Source: a virus (Duplodnaviria > Caudoviricetes). From it: a stretch of DNA of 37,749 bases. The stretch covers positions 1 to 37,749 of the IMG/VR virus record IMGVR_UViG_3300037484_000558; one strand, written 5' to 3'. Under the pieces are notes generated by a model that saw only the letters and a program-made list of their open reading frames with translations, was not told the DNA's origin and did not search any database. Shown in pieces: positions 9,979-29,647 of this stretch. Made by a program: the position numbers and the translations under genes. Position 1 is the first letter of the stretch. Every line of letters begins with the position of its first letter.

Positions 9979-11121
9979 TCAATACTGGTTCGTGCGTGTG
10001 ATGACCGCTTGGGTCGCGTTGCACTGGCCAGTAACGCTCACCTGCGCAGCCGACGAGTCGTGCGAAAGCTGCGTGTAGAAGAAGTACGGCAACCGAATCA
10101 CTTCGGCCAGAATGCCACCGCAATCGGGAGCATTCACGATTTCAACGTCCACTACGTACGGAGCGCACGGGTCGCCCGTATTCGAGGATGTCCAGGTGGA
10201 AGCCGCACCAATCCGCTTCAGTGCTTCCTCGATTGTCGGAGTCGTTCCGCCGGCGACGGCGCGAATGAACTCCCACGTGAAGTCAAACGACACATCCATC
10301 GGCTGCTCGTCACCTTCCTTGTACGTGTCGAGCGCACCGCGGTCACGAATGAACACGACTTCACGATTCTCGTCGTAGGTCATGTTCCCTTCGCCGAGTT
10401 GGATTTCCAACTCAATCGGCAGGAAGGTGATATCGTCGCCGCTCACAACCGCGTCTTCCAGGTCCGGGTCGATGGTGATCGACAGGGTCGAACCGACTGC
10501 TTCGCCGCTGGTTGTCTGAGTAATTGCACCAGCCGCACCGCCGGTCAAACTTGTTCCATTCACCGTCATCATCGCAATCGGATGATTCGTGACGCTGTTA
10601 CCACTGTAGGTGTACGTTGTTGCCGTCGTGTTAGCAGGACCACCTGTAACTGCAACATCACCAGCAGTATATGTCACACCATCAACTTCCAAACCAGCCA
10701 AAGCAACATCGACAGCCGTTTGAATTGTGGCCGAAGTCGCATCAAAAGCAAGCGCTGTCGTTGTGGCGGCCGTATTGCCCGGCAGAGTCAAACTCAAAGT
10801 GAATGTTCCGCCAGTTGCCGTACTCGTAGCCATCGACTGAACTTCATCGACGCCGGCACTAAGTGTCCGGGCTGTCACTTCGTACTTGGTCAGATCACCC
10901 TCGAAACGAACGTGTGCCCCTACGGGCACAGTCGGATCAAAGGTACCGGGTGTAATCGGTACGAGTGAGGCACCCAAACTGGCGCCCGCCGTATCGACCG
11001 TCGGAACAAACGTTTCACTATTGTAAAGGTTGCCGAAACCGTCCTTCAGGCGGACGATGGCATCCTTCAGGTCAATGGGCGCGAAGCACATCAACCGAGG
11101 GGAAAGGCTGAGAAAATTCAC
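9979..11121 (-). CDS. Major tail (tube) protein with inserted decoration domains (380 aa)
   Basis: Upstream of the chaperone, followed by a terminator. Start moved to GTG 11121, 6 nt after AGGAGA. Confidence 0.8.
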   Translation of the reverse strand: MNFLSLSPRLMCFAPIDLKDAIVRLKDGFGNLYNSETFVPTVDTAGASLGASLVPITPGTFDPTVPVGAHVRFEGDLTKYEVTARTLSAGVDEVQSMATSTATGGTFTLSLTLPGNTAATTTALAFDATSATIQTAVDVALAGLEVDGVTYTAGDVAVTGGPANTTATTYTYSGNSVTNHPIAMMTVNGTSLTGGAAGAITQTTSGEAVGSTLSITIDPDLEDAVVSGDDITFLPIELEIQLGEGNMTYDENREVVFIRDRGALDTYKEGDEQPMDVSFDFTWEFIRAVAGGTTPTIEEALKRIGAASTWTSSNTGDPCAPYVVDVEIVNAPDCGGILAEVIRLPYFFYTQLSHDSSAAQVSVTGQCNATQAVITRTNQY

Positions 11122-11140
11122 GCTGAGTCTCCTATTGTGT

Positions 11141-11767
11141 TCACGCAGGGATGAGTTCGTCATCAATCAAGTCCAAGAATACGAGATTATTCTCAACGTC
11201 TTCTGTCTTTAATGAAGAGACGCTCTCATCAATGAAGATGAGATTATTCTCAGTAGCTCGTTCGATTAGAACCTCACCATCCACTTGTTCAGAAAGATGC
11301 ATCTGGAACGATGCCTCAACCGTCGCTTCCTCTAACTGATACTGCGGATCAATTTGACCAAAATGATTGACCCGGACCGGCTCTCGGAAGGTACGATTCT
11401 TCAACTGCAAAACGCCGAGGAGTGAATTGTCATCGTCAGGCCCGTCCCCGTAACGGTAGATGCAATGGTTCTTTGCGAGCCACGTCGCGACTTCACCGCA
11501 ACTGCGGCGCATCTTATGGAAGTCGGTGTCATCCATGAAGGACCGAACCAGGAGATTGATTTCAATATCAAGAATGAAATAATTCCGGCTCGGTTGTTTC
11601 CTCATCGGGCCATCCATCCGGAACTCAAGCAGTTCCGTGTTGGCCGGCAACCCTCTATGCGTACCTTCGATGAACACGCCGAATGTACTTTCAAACCGAG
11701 ATTTGAAATTCCCCGACATTGTGGCGAAGATCCATCGGTCCCAATTTGGGTTCCCTAGGACGCTCAT
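11141..11767 (-). CDS. Putative tail terminator/connector protein (208 aa)
   Basis: Position immediately before the major tail gene; ATGA overlap with the upstream gene. Confidence 0.55.
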   Translation of the reverse strand: MSVLGNPNWDRWIFATMSGNFKSRFESTFGVFIEGTHRGLPANTELLEFRMDGPMRKQPSRNYFILDIEINLLVRSFMDDTDFHKMRRSCGEVATWLAKNHCIYRYGDGPDDDNSLLGVLQLKNRTFREPVRVNHFGQIDPQYQLEEATVEASFQMHLSEQVDGEVLIERATENNLIFIDESVSSLKTEDVENNLVFLDLIDDELIPA

Positions 11768-12255
11768 GTTTCAACCTCCACTTCATCCGAGAACAGAGAA
11801 TACTGTAGGACGCTGGTGGAGACCGATTGGAGGATTGGTGCTCCCTTGACTTCTGTCCCGACTATTAGGAAGCCGGTATCATACTCGTATGTCTGAACTT
11901 CACTCACTTGCCAACGTTTGTTCTCGAACACGAAGTAGTCATCATTCTGAGGCACGTAGCCATCGGCTTCTCTCGTGCCTAGAATCAATCGTCGTTTGGT
12001 CGTGTCGAAGTTGCCACCGTAAGTGAAATTCTTATTGGCGGCGATGAATGACAGGTCAAAGACGAATTTCGTTTTCAGTTCACTCGGCAGGACAACAACC
12101 AGTCGTCGGTCCCAGACAGTCTTTGCCACGGTCTTCTTGCCGGTACGTGTATTGAGAGCCTCTACGTCCCGGTAGAAATCCACGCGCCCGCCCATCCGGC
12201 GCTGTAAATTGTACAACAACCGTCTCATGAACATTGTGGCGCGTTTTTGTGACAT
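11764..12255 (-). CDS. Putative head-closure/head-tail adaptor (163 aa)
   Basis: Position after the capsid; P..DD.F.F....W.V..V pattern like head-tail joining proteins. Confidence 0.55.
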   Translation of the reverse strand: MSQKRATMFMRRLLYNLQRRMGGRVDFYRDVEALNTRTGKKTVAKTVWDRRLVVVLPSELKTKFVFDLSFIAANKNFTYGGNFDTTKRRLILGTREADGYVPQNDDYFVFENKRWQVSEVQTYEYDTGFLIVGTEVKGAPILQSVSTSVLQYSLFSDEVEVET

Positions 12256-12256
12256 T

Positions 12257-12502
12257 TTACTTCCACCCTATGTAACTGGCTACTGCGTTGAAGAGCAGCG
12301 TAACGAAGCCTCCACACAAAACCCACACTAACTTGCCTCGCCGCGACTCAGTTTGTTCCAAACGGTCGACTCGGACCATCATTCCAACTGGTCCTTCAAG
12401 TATGTCGATGCACTTATCGAGTTTGCCATCAACGTTCTTGAGAGTCTCTGCTTGGGCTGCTTGAGCGGCGACTAGTTTCATCAAGATTTCCTGGTCGCTC
12501 AT
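12257..12502 (-). CDS. Small coiled-coil protein with a C-terminal transmembrane helix (holin/XhlA-like architecture)
   Basis: RVDRLEQ then LVWVLCGGFVTLLFNAVASYIGW; ATG 12502 is best spaced from AGGAG. Confidence 0.55.
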   Translation of the reverse strand: MSDQEILMKLVAAQAAQAETLKNVDGKLDKCIDILEGPVGMMVRVDRLEQTESRRGKLVWVLCGGFVTLLFNAVASYIGWK

Positions 12503-12518
12503 TGTGCCCACACTCCTA

Positions 12519-12553
12519 GAGAAACCACCCGGCCCCGCGGTGGGGCCGGGTGG
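12519..12553 (-). terminator. Terminator-like hairpin after the major capsid gene
   Basis: CCACCCGGCCCC-N5-GGGGCCGGGTGG followed by TTTCT on the minus strand. Confidence 0.75.
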
Positions 12554-12567
12554 GTTTCAACTCAAGA

Positions 12568-13983
12568 TCAACCCAAGAACACGGCGCCGAGGTCCTCATC
12601 GAGAACCTTGGTTCCGAACAGCACGTCCAGCGTCACCAGGTGTCCCTGGCCACGGCCTTCGTAGCTGATCGTGACGCGCATGGCGAGATTGTTGTAGCTT
12701 GCAACGCCACTCAACGCACCCGCACCAGCCTTCGGAGGAGCCAACGGGCGAATCACCATCGCGAGCGCGTCGCGGTGGAAAGCAAAGTTGTAGGAGCCGG
12801 CCGGGCCGTATCCCACGACGTCGTTGTTCGCAATCGCTGTCTCCAGCGGACGATCCAGTTCGATGTAGTAGGCACCACTGTCGATTGTCACGTCGACGAT
12901 GCTGTACTCACCGGCCAGAGCCACGTTTGGCGTACCGGCTGTGGCGAAGCTGACCAACTGTCCGACGTGCGGGATACCCGTTCCGTCGACCTTGATCTCT
13001 CCGTCGTAGTTGGCCGGGTAGGCGGTCACGCCGGTATGGCCGGCCAGATCCACCAAACCTGTCGTGATGACATTGATATCCGAAGTCGCCGCAGGCACCG
13101 CAACGCGGAGTGGACGATTGATCGTAATATCATTGGTGCTCACGCCGATCACACGGAAGGGCATCAGGTCGCCCTCGACTGTGATGTACGAACCAACCGG
13201 AGCCACCGCACCCGAGTCAAGACTCAGAACGGTCTGACCAGCGGCTTCATCCGCGCTCAATTCGTCAGCGTTCAACGTTCCGGCGGCGGTCAGAATACTC
13301 GGGGTATTCTGTGCCATCATCACGTCGAAGCCAAGCAACTCGCCCAAGCTGGCCTTCCGCAGAGCGGTGCCGTCGTCGCCAATCGTGTTGGCGGCATTGA
13401 ACAGGTCGAGTTCCAAAATGTCGGTCTTGGTACCGGGCGACACGATCAGATTGCGACCGTCGACGTATGCCTTGTTCTCGTCCATCTTCTGGCCGAGTTC
13501 CAGCATCCGACGCTTCACGTTCGCAACGGCCAGACCTTCCAGTTGGCCGACCGAGTTGGCCAGGAACTGGTAGACTTGACCCATGAGGATCTTGTCGATC
13601 TTGCGGGCGATGGACTGAGCCGCCGGCTTGATGTGCACGCGGACTAGATCCTCGAACGACAGACTTTGCTCGCTGTCCTTGATGGTGAAGCTGGTGTGAA
13701 TGTGCTGGTTCAGCACGACCGCGACATTCGTCGCATTGCTGTCCTGCACGGTCACGTCGTCATTCGCACCCTTCCGCTTGGCCGTGTATTCGTTCGGCCG
13801 GCGGGTATTCACGGTGTCGCCGTAGTCCTGAACGTCATCCGAAAATTCGCGATAGACCAGGTTGCCGATGACCATGTTCTCTTCGAGAATGGCCAGCGAT
13901 TCGGCCGCCCACACTTCGGGTACCCACGCGTCCAAGCTGTTGTCGAACGCCACGAAACGGACTTGAGAAATCGTGTACTTCAC
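12568..13983 (-). CDS. Major capsid protein, P22 coat-like, with inserted beta domains (471 aa)
   Basis: VPEVWAAESL, GDTVN, NFAFHRDALAMVIRPL and DVLFG motifs; follows the scaffold. Start moved to GTG 13983, 7 nt after GAGG. Confidence 0.9.
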   Translation of the reverse strand: MKYTISQVRFVAFDNSLDAWVPEVWAAESLAILEENMVIGNLVYREFSDDVQDYGDTVNTRRPNEYTAKRKGANDDVTVQDSNATNVAVVLNQHIHTSFTIKDSEQSLSFEDLVRVHIKPAAQSIARKIDKILMGQVYQFLANSVGQLEGLAVANVKRRMLELGQKMDENKAYVDGRNLIVSPGTKTDILELDLFNAANTIGDDGTALRKASLGELLGFDVMMAQNTPSILTAAGTLNADELSADEAAGQTVLSLDSGAVAPVGSYITVEGDLMPFRVIGVSTNDITINRPLRVAVPAATSDINVITTGLVDLAGHTGVTAYPANYDGEIKVDGTGIPHVGQLVSFATAGTPNVALAGEYSIVDVTIDSGAYYIELDRPLETAIANNDVVGYGPAGSYNFAFHRDALAMVIRPLAPPKAGAGALSGVASYNNLAMRVTISYEGRGQGHLVTLDVLFGTKVLDEDLGAVFLG

Positions 13984-14036
13984 GACTGTGCCTCTCTTAG
14001 AAAATGATTTCAGAATCAACAACGGGAACCCGGGAT

Positions 14037-14882
14037 TCAGCGCGCCCCACCAGACTTGTAGAAGAGATCCGGTTTCTCTTTACGAAGCCGCCGAAATTCG
14101 GCTGGGTTTTCTCGGGCCAATTTGGCCAGGTCAATCTTACCGGCAACGACGCCGGTATTGCGATGGCCACCAACGCCCGAGCGTTTGGTGTCTACGAACA
14201 GGTTGGCGAACTTGTCCAATTCGGTCATTCGTTTGACCGCTTCGTCGATCGTATATTCCATCACGATCGGCTTCTTGTCCTTGTCGATGTCGGGGAACTT
14301 GACGACGGGTGCCTGCTGTCCTGTTGGTTTCCCGTCCTCGTCGACAACGTCCTTGAACGAAATCATCGGACCGACAATCGCAGAGATTTGGTCAACATCG
14401 TGCGCGTTGTTGTTCGATCCTGCCCGCGTAATCTGATTGCTAACGACTTCTCGCTGGTAAATGGTTCGGAAAGAATCACGTTCAGTTGTGAGTTGCTGCA
14501 CTTGTACTTGCGAAGCCTCACGTTCCTGTGTGGCTTTCCGCTCCGCCTTTTCCTGGGCCGTCAGAAACTGGCCCTCCAATTCGTCGATCCGAGCCTGAAG
14601 GGTCGTACGCTCTTCCTCCGACAATCCCTTCTGATTCTTCTGGGCTTCCAGTTGACCGGCCAGATCACGTTGGGCCTTTGTCAACTGTTGCTCGCGTGCC
14701 TCATGCTTGCGACGCATAGCACCCATGTGGCTATCGAACTCTGCCTGTGTGTAGGTCTTACTGGCTGCCGGGGGTGGATCACCTGTTCCGGCCCCTGCGG
14801 CACCCGCTCCGGCACCTGCGGCACCGGCGGCGGGTTCATTGTCAAAACACACGAAACGGGCGGCTTGATACAGCAACTTCAT
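14037..14882 (-). CDS. Capsid scaffolding protein (281 aa)
   Basis: Low-complexity N-terminus, KTYTQAEFD motif, coiled coil, directly upstream of the capsid. Confidence 0.8.
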   Translation of the reverse strand: MKLLYQAARFVCFDNEPAAGAAGAGAGAAGAGTGDPPPAASKTYTQAEFDSHMGAMRRKHEAREQQLTKAQRDLAGQLEAQKNQKGLSEEERTTLQARIDELEGQFLTAQEKAERKATQEREASQVQVQQLTTERDSFRTIYQREVVSNQITRAGSNNNAHDVDQISAIVGPMISFKDVVDEDGKPTGQQAPVVKFPDIDKDKKPIVMEYTIDEAVKRMTELDKFANLFVDTKRSGVGGHRNTGVVAGKIDLAKLARENPAEFRRLRKEKPDLFYKSGGAR

Positions 14883-14893
14883 TGATTTTGTCC

Positions 14894-15352
14894 TCAGGAT
14901 ACCCTACGTAGTTTGATTCCACGAACGTCGCCAAGCAGGGGTTTGAGGTATTTCCAAGCTAACGAGCTAGGAATCCCTGCGGCAAAGTGTTCGGGCGCAG
15001 AGTCGCGAGCGTAGGTTGTTCTCGCGGCACTGTAGCCTTCCGAAGACACGGAGAGGCTTTCTTGTTCCAGGTCTGGTTCTGCTCCGTCTAATAAAGCATA
15101 AGCGACTTCAAACGTAGCGTCTTTCACACGTTGCGGAACCTCAGTATCTTCGTAAATCGTATTGATCCTTGGCCACTCCAGAGCCTGAGTGGAATCTGTC
15201 TTGGCCCCTCGAAAATTCAACTGGTCGATCCTGATTGAAGCCTCTCGAAGGGCACGGTTGCGTTGATCCTCGTCAGCCTCAACCCAAGCTGGGATGTGGA
15301 GTTTATTCCCGAAATACGCCTCAGCCTCGATCGTGGTGCCGTACTGTGCCAT
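14894..15352 (-). CDS. Head-tail connector-like protein (phage DnaT-like family, 152 aa)
   Basis: EAEAYF...W...F.G.KTD..QALEWPR...VP..VK.A..E.A pattern. Confidence 0.65.
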   Translation of the reverse strand: MAQYGTTIEAEAYFGNKLHIPAWVEADEDQRNRALREASIRIDQLNFRGAKTDSTQALEWPRINTIYEDTEVPQRVKDATFEVAYALLDGAEPDLEQESLSVSSEGYSAARTTYARDSAPEHFAAGIPSSLAWKYLKPLLGDVRGIKLRRVS

Positions 15353-16563
15353 TAGCCTAACTCCCTCCAGTTCAATGCGGCGTACACTTCCATGTTGTTC
15401 GTGAGTGGTTGAACAGCCACAATAAGTCGGTCGTGCGTCCCAGCGATTGATGAACCAAAGCGGACAGAACTGGAACTGTCAATCTGCAAAACTTGCTGTC
15501 CATTTGAAATGCCCGCGAAAATCGTGTAACCGCCTGTACATGTATTCCCGATGGCTCCCTGATAGTATTCGACAGGGCTGTCCGACACAGCGGAAAAAAC
15601 TGGCTCCGAAGCAACAGTCGGATTCAGAAGTACGAATGTTCGGTAGAGTTGCTGCGACAAATTGTCCGAGATCCACGACGCTTGAATGAATTCCAATCCC
15701 GCATGATGGTGTGTTGATTTTAGTCTCACACCGATCAAAGCATAGATGTTATTCAGTTGCAAGTTTTGGAGTGTGGTGCTACTGTGAACACCCCTTGGGA
15801 CCCCAATGGACTCAGTTCCGCTACCCTCAGACATGACAGTCGAACAAATGCAAACTAGATCGCTGGCCCCACCGCTCCCGTTGTTGATTATCTCGTACCG
15901 CAGATGGTTGTTCGGAACCGACATGTAGACCAGGTCAACGTTGTTTGCGTGATTCATTTCGTGGGCGTAGTAGATTTTACCATCAACTACGAAGCCGAAA
16001 CGTACGCGACCGGCACCCAACCACTCCAGGTCGATCTGCAAAATCTGAGTCTTGGTGAAGTCCAATGTGACTCCGGACGGTCCAGTACCATCCATCTTAT
16101 CAACGTTCCAGAGAGCACGGGCTACGGTGTTTTCAACGGGCGATCCACTCGTGTTTGTTCGGCGATTGAATTGGATTGCTCCATTTTCGTCTTCGAGGAA
16201 CAGTCCGTTATCATTATCGCCGTAACCAACACGTTTGAGAATTCCAGACTCACCGTCGCCCAACACAAACGTCATCAACACCATCAGCGATTTCCCAGGC
16301 TGATAATTGAAATGTTGATACGTTTGACGCACACGTCGGCCGGCGGTCGCCGCATTCACGTGAAGCGTGACGCTGGCTTGGTCCGTATTGTACGTGCTGG
16401 TCGCGGTCCCACTGATCTGCTGATCGTCCCACAACTGGGGCATTGCGTCGTGAATCAATTTGCCGTTGAACAGAGTCGTTGGCACACTGACTCGTACACG
16501 ACCAAACGCATCAATGGCACCGGTGTCAGCTGGAGACGTTTCAATTCTGCTTAGGTAGCTCAT
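15352..16563 (-). CDS. Conserved virion structural protein, DAFGR-type (403 aa)
   Basis: DAFGRVRVS, YQPGKS and DLEWLGAGRVRFGF motifs recalled from viral structural proteins. Confidence 0.6.
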   Translation of the reverse strand: MSYLSRIETSPADTGAIDAFGRVRVSVPTTLFNGKLIHDAMPQLWDDQQISGTATSTYNTDQASVTLHVNAATAGRRVRQTYQHFNYQPGKSLMVLMTFVLGDGESGILKRVGYGDNDNGLFLEDENGAIQFNRRTNTSGSPVENTVARALWNVDKMDGTGPSGVTLDFTKTQILQIDLEWLGAGRVRFGFVVDGKIYYAHEMNHANNVDLVYMSVPNNHLRYEIINNGSGGASDLVCICSTVMSEGSGTESIGVPRGVHSSTTLQNLQLNNIYALIGVRLKSTHHHAGLEFIQASWISDNLSQQLYRTFVLLNPTVASEPVFSAVSDSPVEYYQGAIGNTCTGGYTIFAGISNGQQVLQIDSSSSVRFGSSIAGTHDRLIVAVQPLTNNMEVYAALNWRELG

Positions 16564-17066
16564 ACGATGAACCAGTCTGTACCGTTAGGGATGTAACGTC
16601 CGGAGGTCCATTGACTGGTGATAACAGATTCATCACCACCGTCAATGTACTCTGATGCGTATGGAAGCACAATAACGCGATGCGCCGTCCCGTCAATCTT
16701 TTTCACATTGATGGGAAACTTCGGGCCTGCTGGGTCCGGCAAAGTGATTTCAATATCACCCGCAGTCGCGTCAACCAGGATGAACATTTCCTGGATCGGC
16801 GTTGGGTCAACCTCGTAGTCAATAGAAGTCTCAACAATGAGAACCGAGTCATCTGCAATCACAACTGCTTCGAGATTGGTGACTCGGTTCTCGTGGTCAT
16901 CGACACTTGTTGAGTTTTCAAGGACGCGTGTCTGGGTCGCAATTAGCTCCCCGGCAATTTGATCGTAATCGTGACGGTCCGGAGACCGTCGTACGCTCGC
17001 GTTCCGTTGTGTTACGGCATTCGTACCGTCCCACACATTGTCGGGGAAGCTAACTTTGACTACCAT
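16560..17066 (-). CDS. Head-accessory/fibre-like protein (168 aa)
   Basis: WDGT module, short coiled coil, C-terminal VDAT.G.I.ITLP...NGTDW domain. Confidence 0.55.
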   Translation of the reverse strand: MVVKVSFPDNVWDGTNAVTQRNASVRRSPDRHDYDQIAGELIATQTRVLENSTSVDDHENRVTNLEAVVIADDSVLIVETSIDYEVDPTPIQEMFILVDATAGDIEITLPDPAGPKFPINVKKIDGTAHRVIVLPYASEYIDGGDESVITSQWTSGRYIPNGTDWFIV

Positions 17067-17067
17067 G

Positions 17068-18837
17068 TTACGCTCCTGCAGAGACTGTTAACACGCCGCT
17101 GCTGGTCCAAAGTTGACCGGCCACGGCTGGATCGGATGTCGGTACACGTCCATCAACGTCAAAGCCAAGCGGTACAAGCATCCGTTGCATGGAACGAATC
17201 CGTTGGTAAGCTTTCAACCAATCCCAACCGTCTGGGGCGTACTTGGCTGCCGGATACACTTCGCGAGTCCGGCTCGTTCCATCCCACGATTCTGCGTCAT
17301 TTGTCCCACCAATTGATAAAGCCACGATGACGCCGTCCGAGTACAAGCCACCTGCTTCTAGTGGATCGACTGTTGCAATACCAACGTCCTCGACAAGAGC
17401 CAACGGCAGAACGCGACTTTCAAGAGCCGCTATCTGTGTTACCATTGTCCGCCAATCATCCCAAACCGGTTCCCGGGCATCACTGGCATCCCGCTTCGGC
17501 GTCGTACGATCCCAAACATTGGGATAAGTCGCAGTCCCACTAGAAGCCAGTTTGAGTTCATTATCAATCACACCCGGTGTCGTCGTACTGGCAACGGGAG
17601 CCGCTTCTGTGGTCGCCAAGTCAACATTTGCTGTAGTGGCTTGCGTAATATTCGCGCCAGCAACCGAAGCACCGCTGTAGGTCAGTGTTACGGCGGTCGT
17701 ATTGATCGGACCACCTGCCACAACAATGTCGCCCGCCGAATACGTACCAACGCCATTGAGTGCAGTATCAACAGCTGTTTGAATCGTGGCCGATGAGGCA
17801 TTGAAGGCAAGACTGCCAGTTGTTTCGGCACTTTCTCCGGGCACCGTAAGAGTCAAAGTCCAGTTGCCAGAAATCGCAGCAATGGCCGCAAGACTCCCAA
17901 CTTCATTGACAGGAGCCACACCCTGCGTTGTGGTGGAAGCAACCGGCGGTGTCGCGTCATTCAGATCAACATCAGCTGTTGTACTCTGGGCAATGGGTTG
18001 TCCTGCAACCGATGTTCCACTGAAAGTCAATGTAACCGGATTGGCGTTGATTGCACCACCTGCCACAACGATATCGCCGGCGACATACGTACCGACACCA
18101 TTGAGGGCAGTATCAACTGCTGTCTGAATCGTGGCCGATGAAGCATTGAAAGCAATGCTGCCAGTTGTTGATGGACTCTCACCAGGGAAAGTAATCGTCA
18201 AAGTCCAGTTACCCGAACTCGAAGAAATCGCTGCAAGACTCTGGACCTCATCAACAGTGGCCACGCCCGGCGTCGTAGTCGAAGAAACCGGCGGTGTCGC
18301 ATCATTGAGACTGACATTGGTTGTTGTGCACTGAGTAATATTCAGTTCGGTGACAGAAGCACCACTGAATGTCAAGGTCACCGGATTGGCATTGATGGCA
18401 CCGCCAGTGCAAGCAATATCACCAGCCGAAAAGGTCACGCCACGCACGACCAATCCCGCGCAGGCCGCATCAATTGCGGCTTCAATTGTGGCAGCTGAAG
18501 CATTGAAGGCGATATTGGCCGTGGTAACGGGATCATTTTCCGGAAGTGTGATTGTGAGGGTCCAGTTGCCTGACGTGGCATCAATGGCCGCAAGGCTCTG
18601 AACTTCGTCTGTTCCGGTCGAAGTATCCGAGTATAGATGACCCGACACACTCGGATCAGCTGTAGCGAAAGCACCAGCGGTGCTCAGACCGAAGCCATCA
18701 CAAACTCGCTGCATGGCCCGCAATTCCTCAACCATTCGTGCCCAGTCAGCCTTGTTTGTACGCGACTTGCGAAGGCTACTCGATCGTCCGCCACGAGTCG
18801 TTCCATCCCAAACACTTGTCGGAAAACTGGTTGTCAT
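17068..18837 (-). CDS. Repeat-rich head-accessory/decoration protein (589 aa)
   Basis: Three ~117-aa EVQ...GNWTLT repeats flanked by three WDGT modules and three TxDP...G.L[YW] motifs. Confidence 0.65.
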   Translation of the reverse strand: MTTSFPTSVWDGTTRGGRSSSLRKSRTNKADWARMVEELRAMQRVCDGFGLSTAGAFATADPSVSGHLYSDTSTGTDEVQSLAAIDATSGNWTLTITLPENDPVTTANIAFNASAATIEAAIDAACAGLVVRGVTFSAGDIACTGGAINANPVTLTFSGASVTELNITQCTTTNVSLNDATPPVSSTTTPGVATVDEVQSLAAISSSSGNWTLTITFPGESPSTTGSIAFNASSATIQTAVDTALNGVGTYVAGDIVVAGGAINANPVTLTFSGTSVAGQPIAQSTTADVDLNDATPPVASTTTQGVAPVNEVGSLAAIAAISGNWTLTLTVPGESAETTGSLAFNASSATIQTAVDTALNGVGTYSAGDIVVAGGPINTTAVTLTYSGASVAGANITQATTANVDLATTEAAPVASTTTPGVIDNELKLASSGTATYPNVWDRTTPKRDASDAREPVWDDWRTMVTQIAALESRVLPLALVEDVGIATVDPLEAGGLYSDGVIVALSIGGTNDAESWDGTSRTREVYPAAKYAPDGWDWLKAYQRIRSMQRMLVPLGFDVDGRVPTSDPAVAGQLWTSSGVLTVSAGA

Positions 18838-19670: not shown

Positions 19671-20141
19671 TCACATCTTGATCGCTACCTCTATCTTGAG
19701 AAGAAAATCAGTATGACTCAGTGCCCGTCCCACTTTGACAAGGTAGCCAGTATTCGGTGGCGTCAAAGTCATACGACCACTTGTCTCTAAGAAATATTCC
19801 CACCCCGGAGACAAATTAAAGGTTCCGACGGTACTTGTCCAGTCCGTCATTGACACTAGACCAAAAATGGCAACAGGTGTCACTTGTCCAGCTTGTACAA
19901 AACTTCTATTCATACCGAAAACATGATTGCTGATATTGAAATCAGATGCTTCGATATGTCCATCAGTACGCAAACTCACCAATCGCGCAACGTCTAAGTT
20001 TGTATGTGCAACTGCGTAGATTGGAGTAATCTCACGCTGAAGCTCTTGTATTTGAGCAATGGCACTTGCATAATCCCAACCGTCCGGTGCCCTTCGGACA
20101 TTCGGGTTAGGTCTGGTCCTGCTTGTGCCATCCCAGATCAT
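19671..20141 (-). CDS. Decoration-like protein with an N-terminal WDGT module (156 aa)
   Basis: LSPGWEYFL...VGRALSHT aligns with LTPNANYFL...VGHALSAT of the neighbour. Confidence 0.6.
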   Translation of the reverse strand: MIWDGTSRTRPNPNVRRAPDGWDYASAIAQIQELQREITPIYAVAHTNLDVARLVSLRTDGHIEASDFNISNHVFGMNRSFVQAGQVTPVAIFGLVSMTDWTSTVGTFNLSPGWEYFLETSGRMTLTPPNTGYLVKVGRALSHTDFLLKIEVAIKM

Positions 20142-23808: not shown

Positions 23809-24015
23809 TCACAGGAACATCGGGACAATGACCACTAGAAGCTTGAAGATGGTTTCCCAATTCTCCAAGATCCACTGGTACATACGGCGAAAGAAAGGCG
23901 GCTTCACTTCGTCGAACACCCGGTCCATAATCTCGGCCGTGACCGGAATTGCGAACGCAAGCTTCTTCTCATCCAGGACCCGCTCTAAAGCCGTACGAAA
24001 TCTGCGGCGATGCAT
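23809..24015 (-). CDS. Small protein with a hydrophobic C-terminus (68 aa)
   Basis: GGAGG RBS; ends WILENWETIFKLLVVIVPMFL. Confidence 0.65.
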   Translation of the reverse strand: MHRRRFRTALERVLDEKKLAFAIPVTAEIMDRVFDEVKPPFFRRMYQWILENWETIFKLLVVIVPMFL

Positions 24016-24433
24016 CGTATGAAACCTCCCTTGTCCCGCGACTCACGAGCGGCGGGGCAATGACGTACCACGGCCGGTAGCCGCGGATCTTTCTTTTGAT
24101 CTTACCATCTTCAACAACGAGCGTAAGGGGCGTCGCCTTTCCGCCGACATTGGCGAAGAGTTTGGCGTAGACGGTGGAGTCGAGGTAGACGACGTTATGT
24201 CCTCGTTTCTTGAGGATTTCCGTCTCAACCTTGATCCTCTCACAGGGGATACAGCCTTCGGCGGTGAAGACGTAGATGCCATCATCCAATGATCCAACGC
24301 TCGCCACATCCGGCGGAATCGTCTTTTCATCATCGGCACATCGCCCGAGCGTACCGCACGCCAGAGCAGCAACACATGCAACCAGAAGGGCATAGCTATA
24401 CCCTCGGCAGAAGTTTTTCAGGGTTCCCAACAT
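23969..24433 (-). CDS. Exported or membrane-anchored thioredoxin-fold protein (~154 aa)
   Basis: VFTAEGCIPC (CxxC), cis-Pro-like TP motif, hydrophobic N-terminal segment; start uncertain. Confidence 0.75.
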   Translation of the reverse strand: MLGTLKNFCRGYSYALLVACVAALACGTLGRCADDEKTIPPDVASVGSLDDGIYVFTAEGCIPCERIKVETEILKKRGHNVVYLDSTVYAKLFANVGGKATPLTLVVEDGKIKRKIRGYRPWYVIAPPLVSRGTREVSYDASPQISYGFRAGPG

Positions 24434-25412
24434 AGCTTGATATTGCGAAGCAATCCTCCCAGTCGTTGAACATGAGATCCAGGTACTCGGCGTCGACCCA
24501 GAACGAGCCAACAGGCTGATCGTATCGGGTCGGGCCACTATTCCAGTCGAGCCATGAGTTTATAATCAAACCGCCTGGCCGACTGCCGGTGTCGTCGAAT
24601 CCGGCAAGCAACATGCAGTGGTACCACCGTTTGCGGTAGTTCCACACCCGCCAACGTCGCCGGACTGTTGTGCTGAGATAAGGCATGGCGAAGCCGTCCT
24701 TATCCCGCTCGTCATGAAACGCGTACGTCGAGCACACGATGATCGGCTGGCCGACGTAAAGGGCATCGAATGCCGAACGCCAGTTCAGGATCTTTGTGTA
24801 TTCCTTGATGGGTCGTTCCTTGGCGATTGGCTCCAACCAGTCTGGAACACCCGAATCTCGGTACTTGCGTGACCGTGCCGGTGAGTAACCTGTCAGGTCG
24901 ATTTTATTCTCACCGACCTGGTAAGGTATGCGGTGAATTACGCCGTAGTCTTTCAGGTATTGTACGGCCCACTCACCATGACTCCCGGCCCCGCCGCGTA
25001 AGTCCCCGTCTCCGATTTCTACGCGGCTACCGGCGTAGATCATTTCGACACTGGCCTTAGCGATCCAAGGCTCCGGCTCGAATCGCATGAAACGGTCGCA
25101 GGCCATCAAGATGTCGACTGCTCCGCCAGCACCCTGGCCGACGCAATCGCCTTCGCCCCGCTCTCCGTTTTGCGGTCCCTGGTTATGAGTCTGCCAGGGA
25201 CCGGCCTGCATCTCGAAGTATTTCCAAAGCAGGGCTTTCTTACCCACACTTATTGAATTGAACTGTTGGTAAGCCTTACCAAAGTGTTTACGTCTACTTG
25301 GTTGGTTTGGTCGGATCGCTCCAAAGTCCTCATCGTCGGCAATTGCTTTCGCCGGAGCTACGAACAAAATCGGCGATAAGGCGGCAGCCTTTAGGAGCGT
25401 TCGACGTTTCAT
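24396..25412 (-). CDS. Papain-like (C1 family) cysteine peptidase with a Tat signal peptide (338 aa)
   Basis: MKRRTLLK plus h-region and AKA; Q...GDC, HCM and NSW catalytic motifs. Confidence 0.8.
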   Translation of the reverse strand: MKRRTLLKAAALSPILFVAPAKAIADDEDFGAIRPNQPSRRKHFGKAYQQFNSISVGKKALLWKYFEMQAGPWQTHNQGPQNGERGEGDCVGQGAGGAVDILMACDRFMRFEPEPWIAKASVEMIYAGSRVEIGDGDLRGGAGSHGEWAVQYLKDYGVIHRIPYQVGENKIDLTGYSPARSRKYRDSGVPDWLEPIAKERPIKEYTKILNWRSAFDALYVGQPIIVCSTYAFHDERDKDGFAMPYLSTTVRRRWRVWNYRKRWYHCMLLAGFDDTGSRPGGLIINSWLDWNSGPTRYDQPVGSFWVDAEYLDLMFNDWEDCFAISSYVGNPEKLLPRV

Positions 25413-26158
25413 TGTAATGACCTTTCGACAATCGTGGCCAGCTTAGGCCATTCCCGTTTGAAATCTTCCCTGGTCTTCAAATCCAACGTATCGACATAAG
25501 CAGCTAGGACCTCCAGGTACGGCGTCCATTTCGGATCATCTGCGGTCGCCCGTTTAAGCCCGGCAACCGTCTCAGCAAGCATCTGATCGGCTGGCACGGC
25601 TGATTCGGCGAGTGCTCGAAAGCACTGAGCAAGTTTGGGACCCGCTTCCTTATCGGCTGGGGCGACTTCTTTGAGTTTAACCTCAACTTGACTCAGATCA
25701 ACTGGGGCCGGTTTGGGCGGATCGGGCTTGGGAGCCGGAGGAACCGGAGGAACTGGAGCCGGAGGATTGGGAGCCGGAGGAACCGGAGGAGCCGGAGGAG
25801 CCGGAGGATTAGGAGCCGGAGGATTAGGAGCCGGAGGATTAGGAGCCGGAGGCTTCGGCGGTTCCGGTTTGGAATCTTTGGACACAACCAACGTGTGCGT
25901 CAGGATGACAGGCTTCTCGTCGACGATGCCGGCCAGAACGAACGTATAAGTACCGGTCTGCCGCGCCGAGAAGAAGGCTTTTGGGCCTATTGCCTCGAAG
26001 TCCGAAGTCTCCTGGATGCACTTCCAAGCCACTTCATCCGAGCCACTCGACTCGAACCGAACAAGTTCTCCGACCACCGCAGTCTGCGGGGCCTGAAGCG
26101 TCATTTCTGCGTGAACTGTTCCTGCGATAAGCAGGAGAATCATTGAGAGTGTTTTCAT
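25409..26158 (-). CDS. Secreted protein with a proline-rich linker (249 aa)
   Basis: Sec signal MKTLSMILLLIAGTVHA, beta domain, (PPAPN)n linker, helical C-terminal domain. Confidence 0.75.
   Translation of the reverse strand: MKTLSMILLLIAGTVHAEMTLQAPQTAVVGELVRFESSGSDEVAWKCIQETSDFEAIGPKAFFSARQTGTYTFVLAGIVDEKPVILTHTLVVSKDSKPEPPKPPAPNPPAPNPPAPNPPAPPAPPVPPAPNPPAPVPPVPPAPKPDPPKPAPVDLSQVEVKLKEVAPADKEAGPKLAQCFRALAESAVPADQMLAETVAGLKRATADDPKWTPYLEVLAAYVDTLDLKTREDFKREWPKLATIVERSLQ
25730..25852 (-). repeat. 9/15-bp coding repeats (GGAGCCGGA on +) encoding the Pro-rich linker
   Basis: Visible tandem repeats. Confidence 0.85.
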
Positions 26159-28867: not shown

Positions 28868-28971
28868 TTTACCATCGGATTTCGTTGTCGTTTTCCGATA
28901 TGGTGTTGACTAGTGGATGTTCGGGAAGCGTACGCAACATAGCACGTATGCTATCTAGAGTAGGGGTTGAA

Positions 28972-29021
28972 TGTTCCTTGTCCCGTTGTTCCTTGTCCCG
29001 TTGTTCCTTGTCCCGTTGTTC
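28972..29021. repeat. 15-bp tandem repeat TGTTCCTTGTCCCGT x3 plus a partial copy
   Basis: Exact tandem copies. Confidence 0.95.
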
Positions 29022-29147
29022 GCGTAGAATAGCGGTTAGGTATCGCATGTTAGAACATTCTAGGCTGTAGGGTAGTTTGGGCGATTGCTGCGATAATCAC
29101 GAGTAGGGCAAAAGCGAGTAGCATTGAATACCGTCCTTTCTACTTCA

Positions 29148-29202: not shown

Positions 29203-29580
29203 CTAGCTCAGCCTACTAGACTCCCGCTACGCTGAACTAGGCGACGTGGTTCTAGACTCCCGCTACTAGAACCACGTCGCCTAGTTGTCTAGGCTGAGCT
29301 AAGCGACGTGGTTCTAGTAGCGGGAGTCTAGAACCACGTCGCCTAGAACCACGTCGCCTAGCTCAGCCTAGACAACTAGGCGACGTGGTTCTAGACTGAG
29401 CTAGGCGACGTGGTTCTAGCTCAGCCTACTAGACTCCCGCTACGCTGAGCTAGGCGACGTGGTTCTAGACTCCCGCTACGCTGAGCTAGTCTCCCGCTAC
29501 GCTGAGCTAGACTCCCGCTACGCTGAGCTAGTCTCCCGCTACGCTGAGCTAGTCTCCCGCTACGCTGAGCTAAACCACGT
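29203..29580. repeat. Modular CTAG-jointed repeat array
   Basis: 23 CTAG sites separating four short modules in both orientations; ends in five 21-bp tandem units. Confidence 0.95.
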
Positions 29581-29647
29581 TTTCCCGATTTTGAGTGTAC
29601 CTAAGTCTATGCGGCGCAGCTACTTGTGAACATTCCCGAAATTTTGC

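Follow-up and report, generated by a model that had tools for sequence, protein, structure and literature searches.

The 37.7-kb virus record studied here (IMGVR_UViG_3300037484_000558; "the window" means this whole stretch of 37,749 nucleotides) comes from a siphovirus-like phage, whose head and tail genes lie on the minus strand. The genes are ordered as terminase, portal, adaptor, scaffold, P22-type capsid, tube, chaperone and tape measure. Scaffold, capsid and tube are non-homologous proteins, and all three open with the same kind of 13-residue N-terminal tag. This tag, called the leader, and a candidate enzyme for its removal in related phages are the subject of this analysis. The features concerned are the following (aa, amino acids; E, expect value; pLDDT, predicted local distance difference test score):

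14037..14882, minus strand: head scaffolding protein, 281 aa (phrog_206, E 2e-12)
14844..14882, minus strand: scaffold leader of 13 codons, start ATG 14882, ending ...RFVCF and followed by D (homolog leaders)
14891..14895, minus strand: Shine-Dalgarno-like GAGGA ahead of the scaffold ATG
12568..13983, minus strand: major capsid protein of the P22-coat family, 471 aa from GTG (phrog_283, E 2e-58; PF11651)
13945..13983, minus strand: capsid leader of 13 codons, start GTG 13983, ending ...RFVAF and followed by D (leaderless homologs start Met-Ala-Asn at the junction)
13991..13995, minus strand: Shine-Dalgarno-like AGAGG ahead of the capsid GTG
9979..11121, minus strand: 380-aa protein containing inserted domains, likely the major tail (tube) protein (gene order, phrog_10909 matches of homologs, weak tube-fold matches)
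11083..11121, minus strand: tube leader of 13 codons, start GTG 11121, ending ...RLMCF and followed by A (homologs; pLDDT below 50 at residues 1-12)
11129..11133, minus strand: Shine-Dalgarno-like AGGAG ahead of the tube GTG

Shared leaders of scaffold, capsid and tube proteins

The three starts are those given in a preliminary description of this DNA, and they hold: the alternative starts TTG 14022 (capsid) and ATG 11091 (tube) have no Shine-Dalgarno motif, and close tube homologs have a Met start at the position equivalent to 11121. The shared motif R-[FL]-[VM]-[CA]-F at residues 9-13 was also confirmed. It occurs three times in the six frames of the window, each time in one of these leaders. 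About 0.02 occurrences are expected by chance in 25 genes totalling 8,493 residues, a post hoc figure because the motif was derived from the same three sites; the independent test is provided by the homologs.

The tube protein of the window has no direct family match, and its identity comes from gene order, homologs and model. The major tail protein family phrog_10909 is matched by 10 of 53 aligned tube sequences, and the AlphaFold model gives weak matches to tube folds (Foldseek E 0.002-0.09). The domain inserted in this protein is also found, in three repeats, in a 589-aa protein of the window (17068-18837, minus strand), in which a short W-D-G-T motif is common to the products of 16560-17066 and 19671-20141. 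The 589-aa protein and the W-D-G-T proteins are likely decoration proteins.

Homologs of the capsid protein number 1,014, and leaders were counted in the best 120 of these. An extension ending in Phe or Tyr before x-Asn is present in 115 of the 119 non-self sequences; the four exceptions are two truncated sequences and two failures of the regular expression. Homologs of the tube have two forms, with either a leader ending in Phe or Tyr before APIDLK or a Met-Ala start at the same place. Leaderless tubes start Met-Ala-x-Ile-Asp/Glu and leaderless capsids Met-Ala-Asn, so that the residues after the final Phe are ordinary N-termini, as had been suggested.

Leaders were scored in 105 loci (L001-L016, L036-L113, ten of L162-L172, and the window), where their conservation among homologs is evident. 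The capsid junction could be placed in 102 loci, 99 with a leader and three, copies of one phage, without it. For the tube, 23 of 58 placed junctions have a leader and 35 do not, and a few leaderless tubes escaped the anchor. Scaffold junctions were placed in 84 loci. After clustering at 70%, the last leader residue (P1) is Phe or Tyr in 40/42 scaffold clusters and 44/47 capsid clusters, which is partly imposed by the junction rule, and Gly in one and two clusters, respectively. Conservation is strongest at this last residue and stops where the leaderless homologs start. The capsid tree, a quick one without bootstrap, has tube leaders and leaderless capsids at scattered positions, which implies repeated gain or loss.

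The leader motifs vary between phages and agree among the proteins of one phage. Similarity at P2-P6 was compared with 20,000 permutations. Between scaffold and capsid it is 15.3, versus -0.6 ± 1.0 when permuted (42 clusters, p<0.0001); between tube and capsid it is 11.2 versus -0.6 ± 2.1 (12 clusters). No permutation reached the observed value in either comparison. The leader of the phage's own partner protein is closer than that of the nearest relative in 33/42 clusters for scaffold and capsid, and in 9/12 for tube and capsid. Even odd motifs are found on all three proteins of one phage, like His at P1 (L087/L088) or Trp-Tyr/Phe-Gly (L062/L070). The motif reads V-[AC]-F in G006, T-V-H in G010 and W-[YF]-G in G014. 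N-termini behind strong ribosome-binding sites were also scored, in the window and in four related phages. The two or three proteins already recognized as tagged ranked at the top, although the filter missed the capsid start of G002, and no convincing further tagged protein appeared.

These phages are distant from cultured ones, in which only capsids of about 24-32% identity were found (best 30 of 59). The capsid is present in six genome bins from six different lineages. These are probably mis-binned phage contigs, and no host is drawn from them. The integrase of a distant provirus (G051) is nearest to Planctomycetota clusters. A search for the scaffold in viral contigs gave no match. Tandem pairs of tail-tube paralogs occur in L010, L014, L052, L056 and L098.

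Candidate leader peptidase and leaderless lineages

Comparison of whole related genomes revealed a conserved stand-alone open reading frame (ORF) of 139-208 aa, beside NYN and sigma-factor genes (in G003, L114:1501-2112; in G006, L117:1501-1965). It is present in 13/32 records, including all six that are at least 90% complete and all nine over 80 kb. Among 25 records found via this candidate peptidase, 13 match the capsid; 11 have a full capsid, and by eye all 11 carry an extension ending in Phe or Tyr. The sequences suggest a Cys-His-Asp triad: C12 and H115 are invariant in 39/39 members and D128 is kept in at least 90%, and in the larger alignment Cys is found in 250/250, His in 254/254 and Asp in 238/254 of the aligned rows. 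Clustering at 50% identity gives 1,891 representatives of the family, and the Atlas clusters nearest to it are 81-100% viral.

No member (0/39) matches PF03412 or PF13529 at E≤1, and no meaningful match came from sequence searches of Pfam, PHROGs, NCBIfam or PDB; C39 appeared in the family comparison only as a lower-ranked look-alike. The structure model (pLDDT 96.5) predicts a papain-like, C39-like fold. Its top matches are tied: PCAT1 (Z 12.5), the LahT leader complex (12.0), PeiR (12.0) and ComA (11.7). PCAT1 and LahT superpose on the model with a root-mean-square deviation of 2.8 over 120-123 residues. The protein has no signal peptide, and its gene lies far from the head operon.

Phages without leaders serve as natural controls. 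The phage of L106/L107/L182 has no leader on scaffold, capsid or tube. In its record G058 (72.9 kb) and the overlapping G059, NYN and sigma are separated by 290 bp that contain nothing more than a 60-codon ORF, and no peptidase was found in either, though NYN is present. A tagged relative, G015, with 72% capsid identity to the leaderless phage, has the peptidase between NYN and sigma. G058/G059 retain 29/32 core genes; apart from the peptidase, the two genes missed are missed in leader-bearing G015 as well. By this comparison, the peptidase would be the one core gene lost together with the leaders.

Further leaderless capsids were found by a pattern scan. G063 is leaderless on all three proteins and belongs to a separate branch of the capsid tree; NYN is present, and an exhaustive search with hidden Markov models (HMMs) found no peptidase (best E 0.78). 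In G062, capsid and tube are leaderless and only the scaffold has a leader-like start; a divergent peptidase copy lies between NYN and sigma, with Cys, His and Asp kept (E 9e-7). Among records in which NYN was found, the peptidase is present in 9/9 leader-bearing versus 0/2 leaderless ones (Fisher p 0.018). G013, lacking the polymerase-NYN region, and G057, lacking the head module, were left out as uninformative. A leaderless capsid with a leader-like scaffold start also occurs in L211, L212, L223, L231, L256, G064 and G065 (no NYN match in the last two). Such mixed states suggest that the scaffold tag is lost last; in phage 80alpha, the scaffold N-terminus is likewise the essential one.

Other proteases were looked for as well. 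The preliminary description had recognized no prohead protease between portal and capsid, and there is indeed no match to a protease family of PHROGs or Pfam among these genes, nor was one recognized in the head genes of the window. The host protease Prp (PF04327) was found in 0/10 related records (0/5 and 0/5), six of them at least 90% complete, and the Prp family has no match among 47 window proteins. In the complete G006, 92 of 100 ORFs were scanned, and none is a Pfam peptidase. One window protein was considered as the leader protease:

24396..25412, minus strand: protein of 338 aa; twin-arginine-like signal; Cys/His/Asn motifs of papain-like appearance by eye (discarded as the general enzyme)

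It has no family or PDB match, and it was rejected since G001 and G002, both complete and leader-bearing, have no BLAST homolog of it. Leaderless G058 and G063 lack it too and so do not exclude it.

Known systems and rival explanations

We consider it fairly probable that a phage-encoded C39-like leader peptidase, rather than host Prp, removes the tags after Phe or Tyr at P1. The tags stand directly ahead of the start of leaderless homologs, and they co-vary within a phage. From these sequences, we infer both that the tags are cleaved and that the candidate peptidase cleaves them. Recognition is suggested because the leaders co-vary and are lost with the peptidase, and cleavage because of the junction and the intact triad.

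The closest parallel is Staphylococcus phage 80alpha, where host Prp (MEROPS C108, clan CR) is reported to process scaffold and capsid (PMC9261936, PMC9405229). In both systems, N-terminal leaders of 13-14 residues ending in Phe are found on non-homologous virion proteins, the head operon has no prohead protease, and the (likely) cutter is a cysteine protease. The motif given for Prp and ribosomal protein L27 is MLxx(D/N)LQ(F/L)F|A(S/H)KK (PMC9261936). The leaders described here have no such LQFF|A; only length and the aromatic P1 are in common. Furthermore, each phage here has a motif of its own, both parts have been lost from entire lineages, and the candidate enzyme is encoded by the phage and predicted to be papain-like in fold. 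The system may thus work like that of 80alpha without being a member of it. The preliminary description had proposed 80alpha-like leaders with a new consensus, cut by one protease. The likeness and the consensus stand and, given the co-variation, one enzyme is probable; the likely one is the phage-encoded candidate and not a Prp-like host enzyme. A leader on a tail protein is not new, as the Prp motif has already been noted on the major tail protein of phi13 (PMC5744158).

C39 domains are double-Gly peptidases with a Cys-His-Asp triad, fused to ATP-binding cassette (ABC) transporters (PMC6363468, PMC10318531). The candidate resembles those of PCAT1, LahT150 and ComA in its predicted fold (Z 11.7-12.5), its length of ~150 residues, and the placement of Cys on the first helix and His and Asp on later strands; the known job of C39 is the removal of N-terminal leaders. 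In contrast to the C39 of PCAT/AMS transporters, it stands alone, without ABC transporter fusion or PF03412 match. Phage Cp-1 is described as having its own clan CR protease, which removes ~40 residues from the capsid protein (PMC9261936, PMC9405229). There, too, a phage-encoded cysteine protease acts on an N-terminal capsid extension, as proposed here, but the Cp-1 enzyme is Prp-like, has one reported substrate and removes a longer extension. A report of a phage enzyme such as the candidate was not found in openly licensed PubMed Central papers and bioRxiv.

The prohead proteases of HK97/T4-like and giant phages are serine proteases that act inside the prohead and are encoded among the head genes; SPN3US gp245 is reportedly an example from a giant phage. 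The proposed system would share with them one phage enzyme, several virion proteins and a common motif. Unlike theirs, the candidate gene belongs to the replication region, and the tags extend to a tail protein.

Several observations weigh against the candidate as the cutter. The window is a fragment without the NYN/sigma region and so without the peptidase gene; its own phage likely encodes the enzyme outside the sequenced fragment, the nearest record with peptidase and capsid being G003 (77% capsid identity, all three proteins tagged). The co-loss concerns two lineages, both incomplete (CheckV 80% and 41%), and a relocated peptidase gene is therefore possible. Weak copies can be overlooked, since the first-pass genome search missed the G062 copy that the exhaustive HMM search found. 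The scaffold junction rule was tuned by eye after seeing the sequences and cannot score leaderless scaffolds. Two peptidase paralogs are present in both G001 (46872-47411, 68014-68502) and G010 (50140-50652, 72292-72747), the second of each located away from NYN. C39 substrates end in double Gly (PMC6363468), while the proposed ones end mostly in Phe or Tyr. Foldseek against PDB ranks the same structural group first with no E below 0.001, and PeiR, a pseudomurein peptidase, is tied; therefore, the fold does not fix the substrate. Finally, peptidase and leader similarity in 19 genomes gave a partial rho of 0.40 (p 0.01), or 0.39 without three near-duplicates, which falls to 0.02 (p 0.45) once the outlier G014 is also dropped. 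This co-divergence rests on one outlier and is not counted as support.

It is rather improbable, in our view, that the tag serves as a handle bound by a chaperone, or by the peptidase-like protein itself, and is kept on or cut only incidentally. In 80alpha, the scaffold leader is reported to be needed and its cleavage not, and a common chaperone is proposed (PMC5744158). Co-variation and co-loss show recognition, not cleavage. A handle would nevertheless leave aside that conservation peaks at the last residue and ends where leaderless homologs begin, and that the partner protein keeps a full catalytic triad. We regard as unlikely, too, that a host protease cuts the leaders, as Prp does in 80alpha (PMC9261936), with motif differences reflecting host differences and the phage peptidase acting elsewhere, for example in cell-wall or anti-defence proteolysis. 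The 80alpha precedent, the leader length and aromatic P1, the structural tie with the cell-wall peptidase PeiR, the distance of the candidate gene from the head operon and the lack of robust co-divergence between peptidase and leader fit this explanation. It is opposed by the absence of an L27-type motif and by the lack of a signal peptide on the candidate, and it gives no reason for the peptidase being the single core gene to disappear along with the leaders.

Very unlikely is a similarity at the nucleotide level, in which the 5' ends of highly expressed late genes would carry a translation-control element or undergo gene conversion. The scaffold and capsid genes share nine identical bases within the motif, and the same codon at identical leader residues is slightly commoner within phages (81/167, 48%) than between them (862/2142, 40%). 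About half of the identical residues nevertheless use different codons, and the constraint therefore acts mainly at the protein level. Nor would this explanation predict the co-loss of the peptidase.

Neighbouring genes and the proposed role of the leaders

Upstream of the terminase, 23809-26158 (minus strand) encodes a proline-rich signal-peptide protein, the twin-arginine-signal Cys/His/Asn protein, a thioredoxin-like protein and a small membrane protein, in the same order in L003/L004; this cassette is possibly a lysis module. Several proteins with twin-arginine signal starts are encoded in G057 (G057:C1:98127-102288, L301; 67899-69986, L299). One of them includes segments derived from the capsid (E 3e-33 against the capsid profile) and is apparently an exported capsid-like protein. 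Between its structural and early genes, the window has a low-coding stretch with short ORFs of tandem heptapeptide or pentapeptide repeats (29459-29629, plus strand; 28869-29048, minus strand).

In the mechanism that we propose, the precursors of scaffold, capsid and tube would carry a removable 13-residue leader. The stand-alone C39-like cysteine peptidase would cut after the terminal Phe, and the cut would restore the N-terminus that leaderless relatives make directly. The position of the gene by NYN/sigma instead of the head operon, together with the lack of a signal peptide, suggests that the enzyme is already in the cytoplasm by the time the late proteins are made. Action on free subunits would explain the tail protein as a substrate. 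Most likely, the leader would chaperone or time the folding of the subunits and then leave a normal N-terminus, making the system accessory and not an obligatory switch. It had been proposed that cleavage licenses head and tail assembly. This is unsupported because tube leaders are optional (35/58 tubes are leaderless, and in at least two lineages scaffold, capsid and tube all lack the leader) and 80alpha can do without cleavage: there, mutants with uncleavable capsid and scaffold are reported as viable and the purpose of leader removal is still called unclear (PMC5744158).

More tentatively, a large family of uncultured phages of ~100 kb, at least some on Planctomycetota, may have a self-contained tag-and-peptidase system. 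A bacteriocin-type C39-like enzyme, freed from its transporter, would recognize an N-terminal password private to its phage, on whichever virion proteins have acquired the tag. Tube tags would be repeatedly gained and dropped, passwords would diverge, and tags and enzyme would be lost together.

The system is apparently an independent version of virion leader removal, with a candidate enzyme of a different clan than Prp, and the family offers natural controls, since its phages may be tagged, tagged on the scaffold only, or tagless. The 1,891 clusters of the unannotated peptidase family thereby become candidate virion-protein leader peptidases. If the proposal is true, private passwords could stop co-infecting relatives or satellites from maturing or hijacking the subunits of a phage, and these clusters would amount to a collection of orthogonal proteases, each specific for a sequence, with substrates that can be read from the genome.

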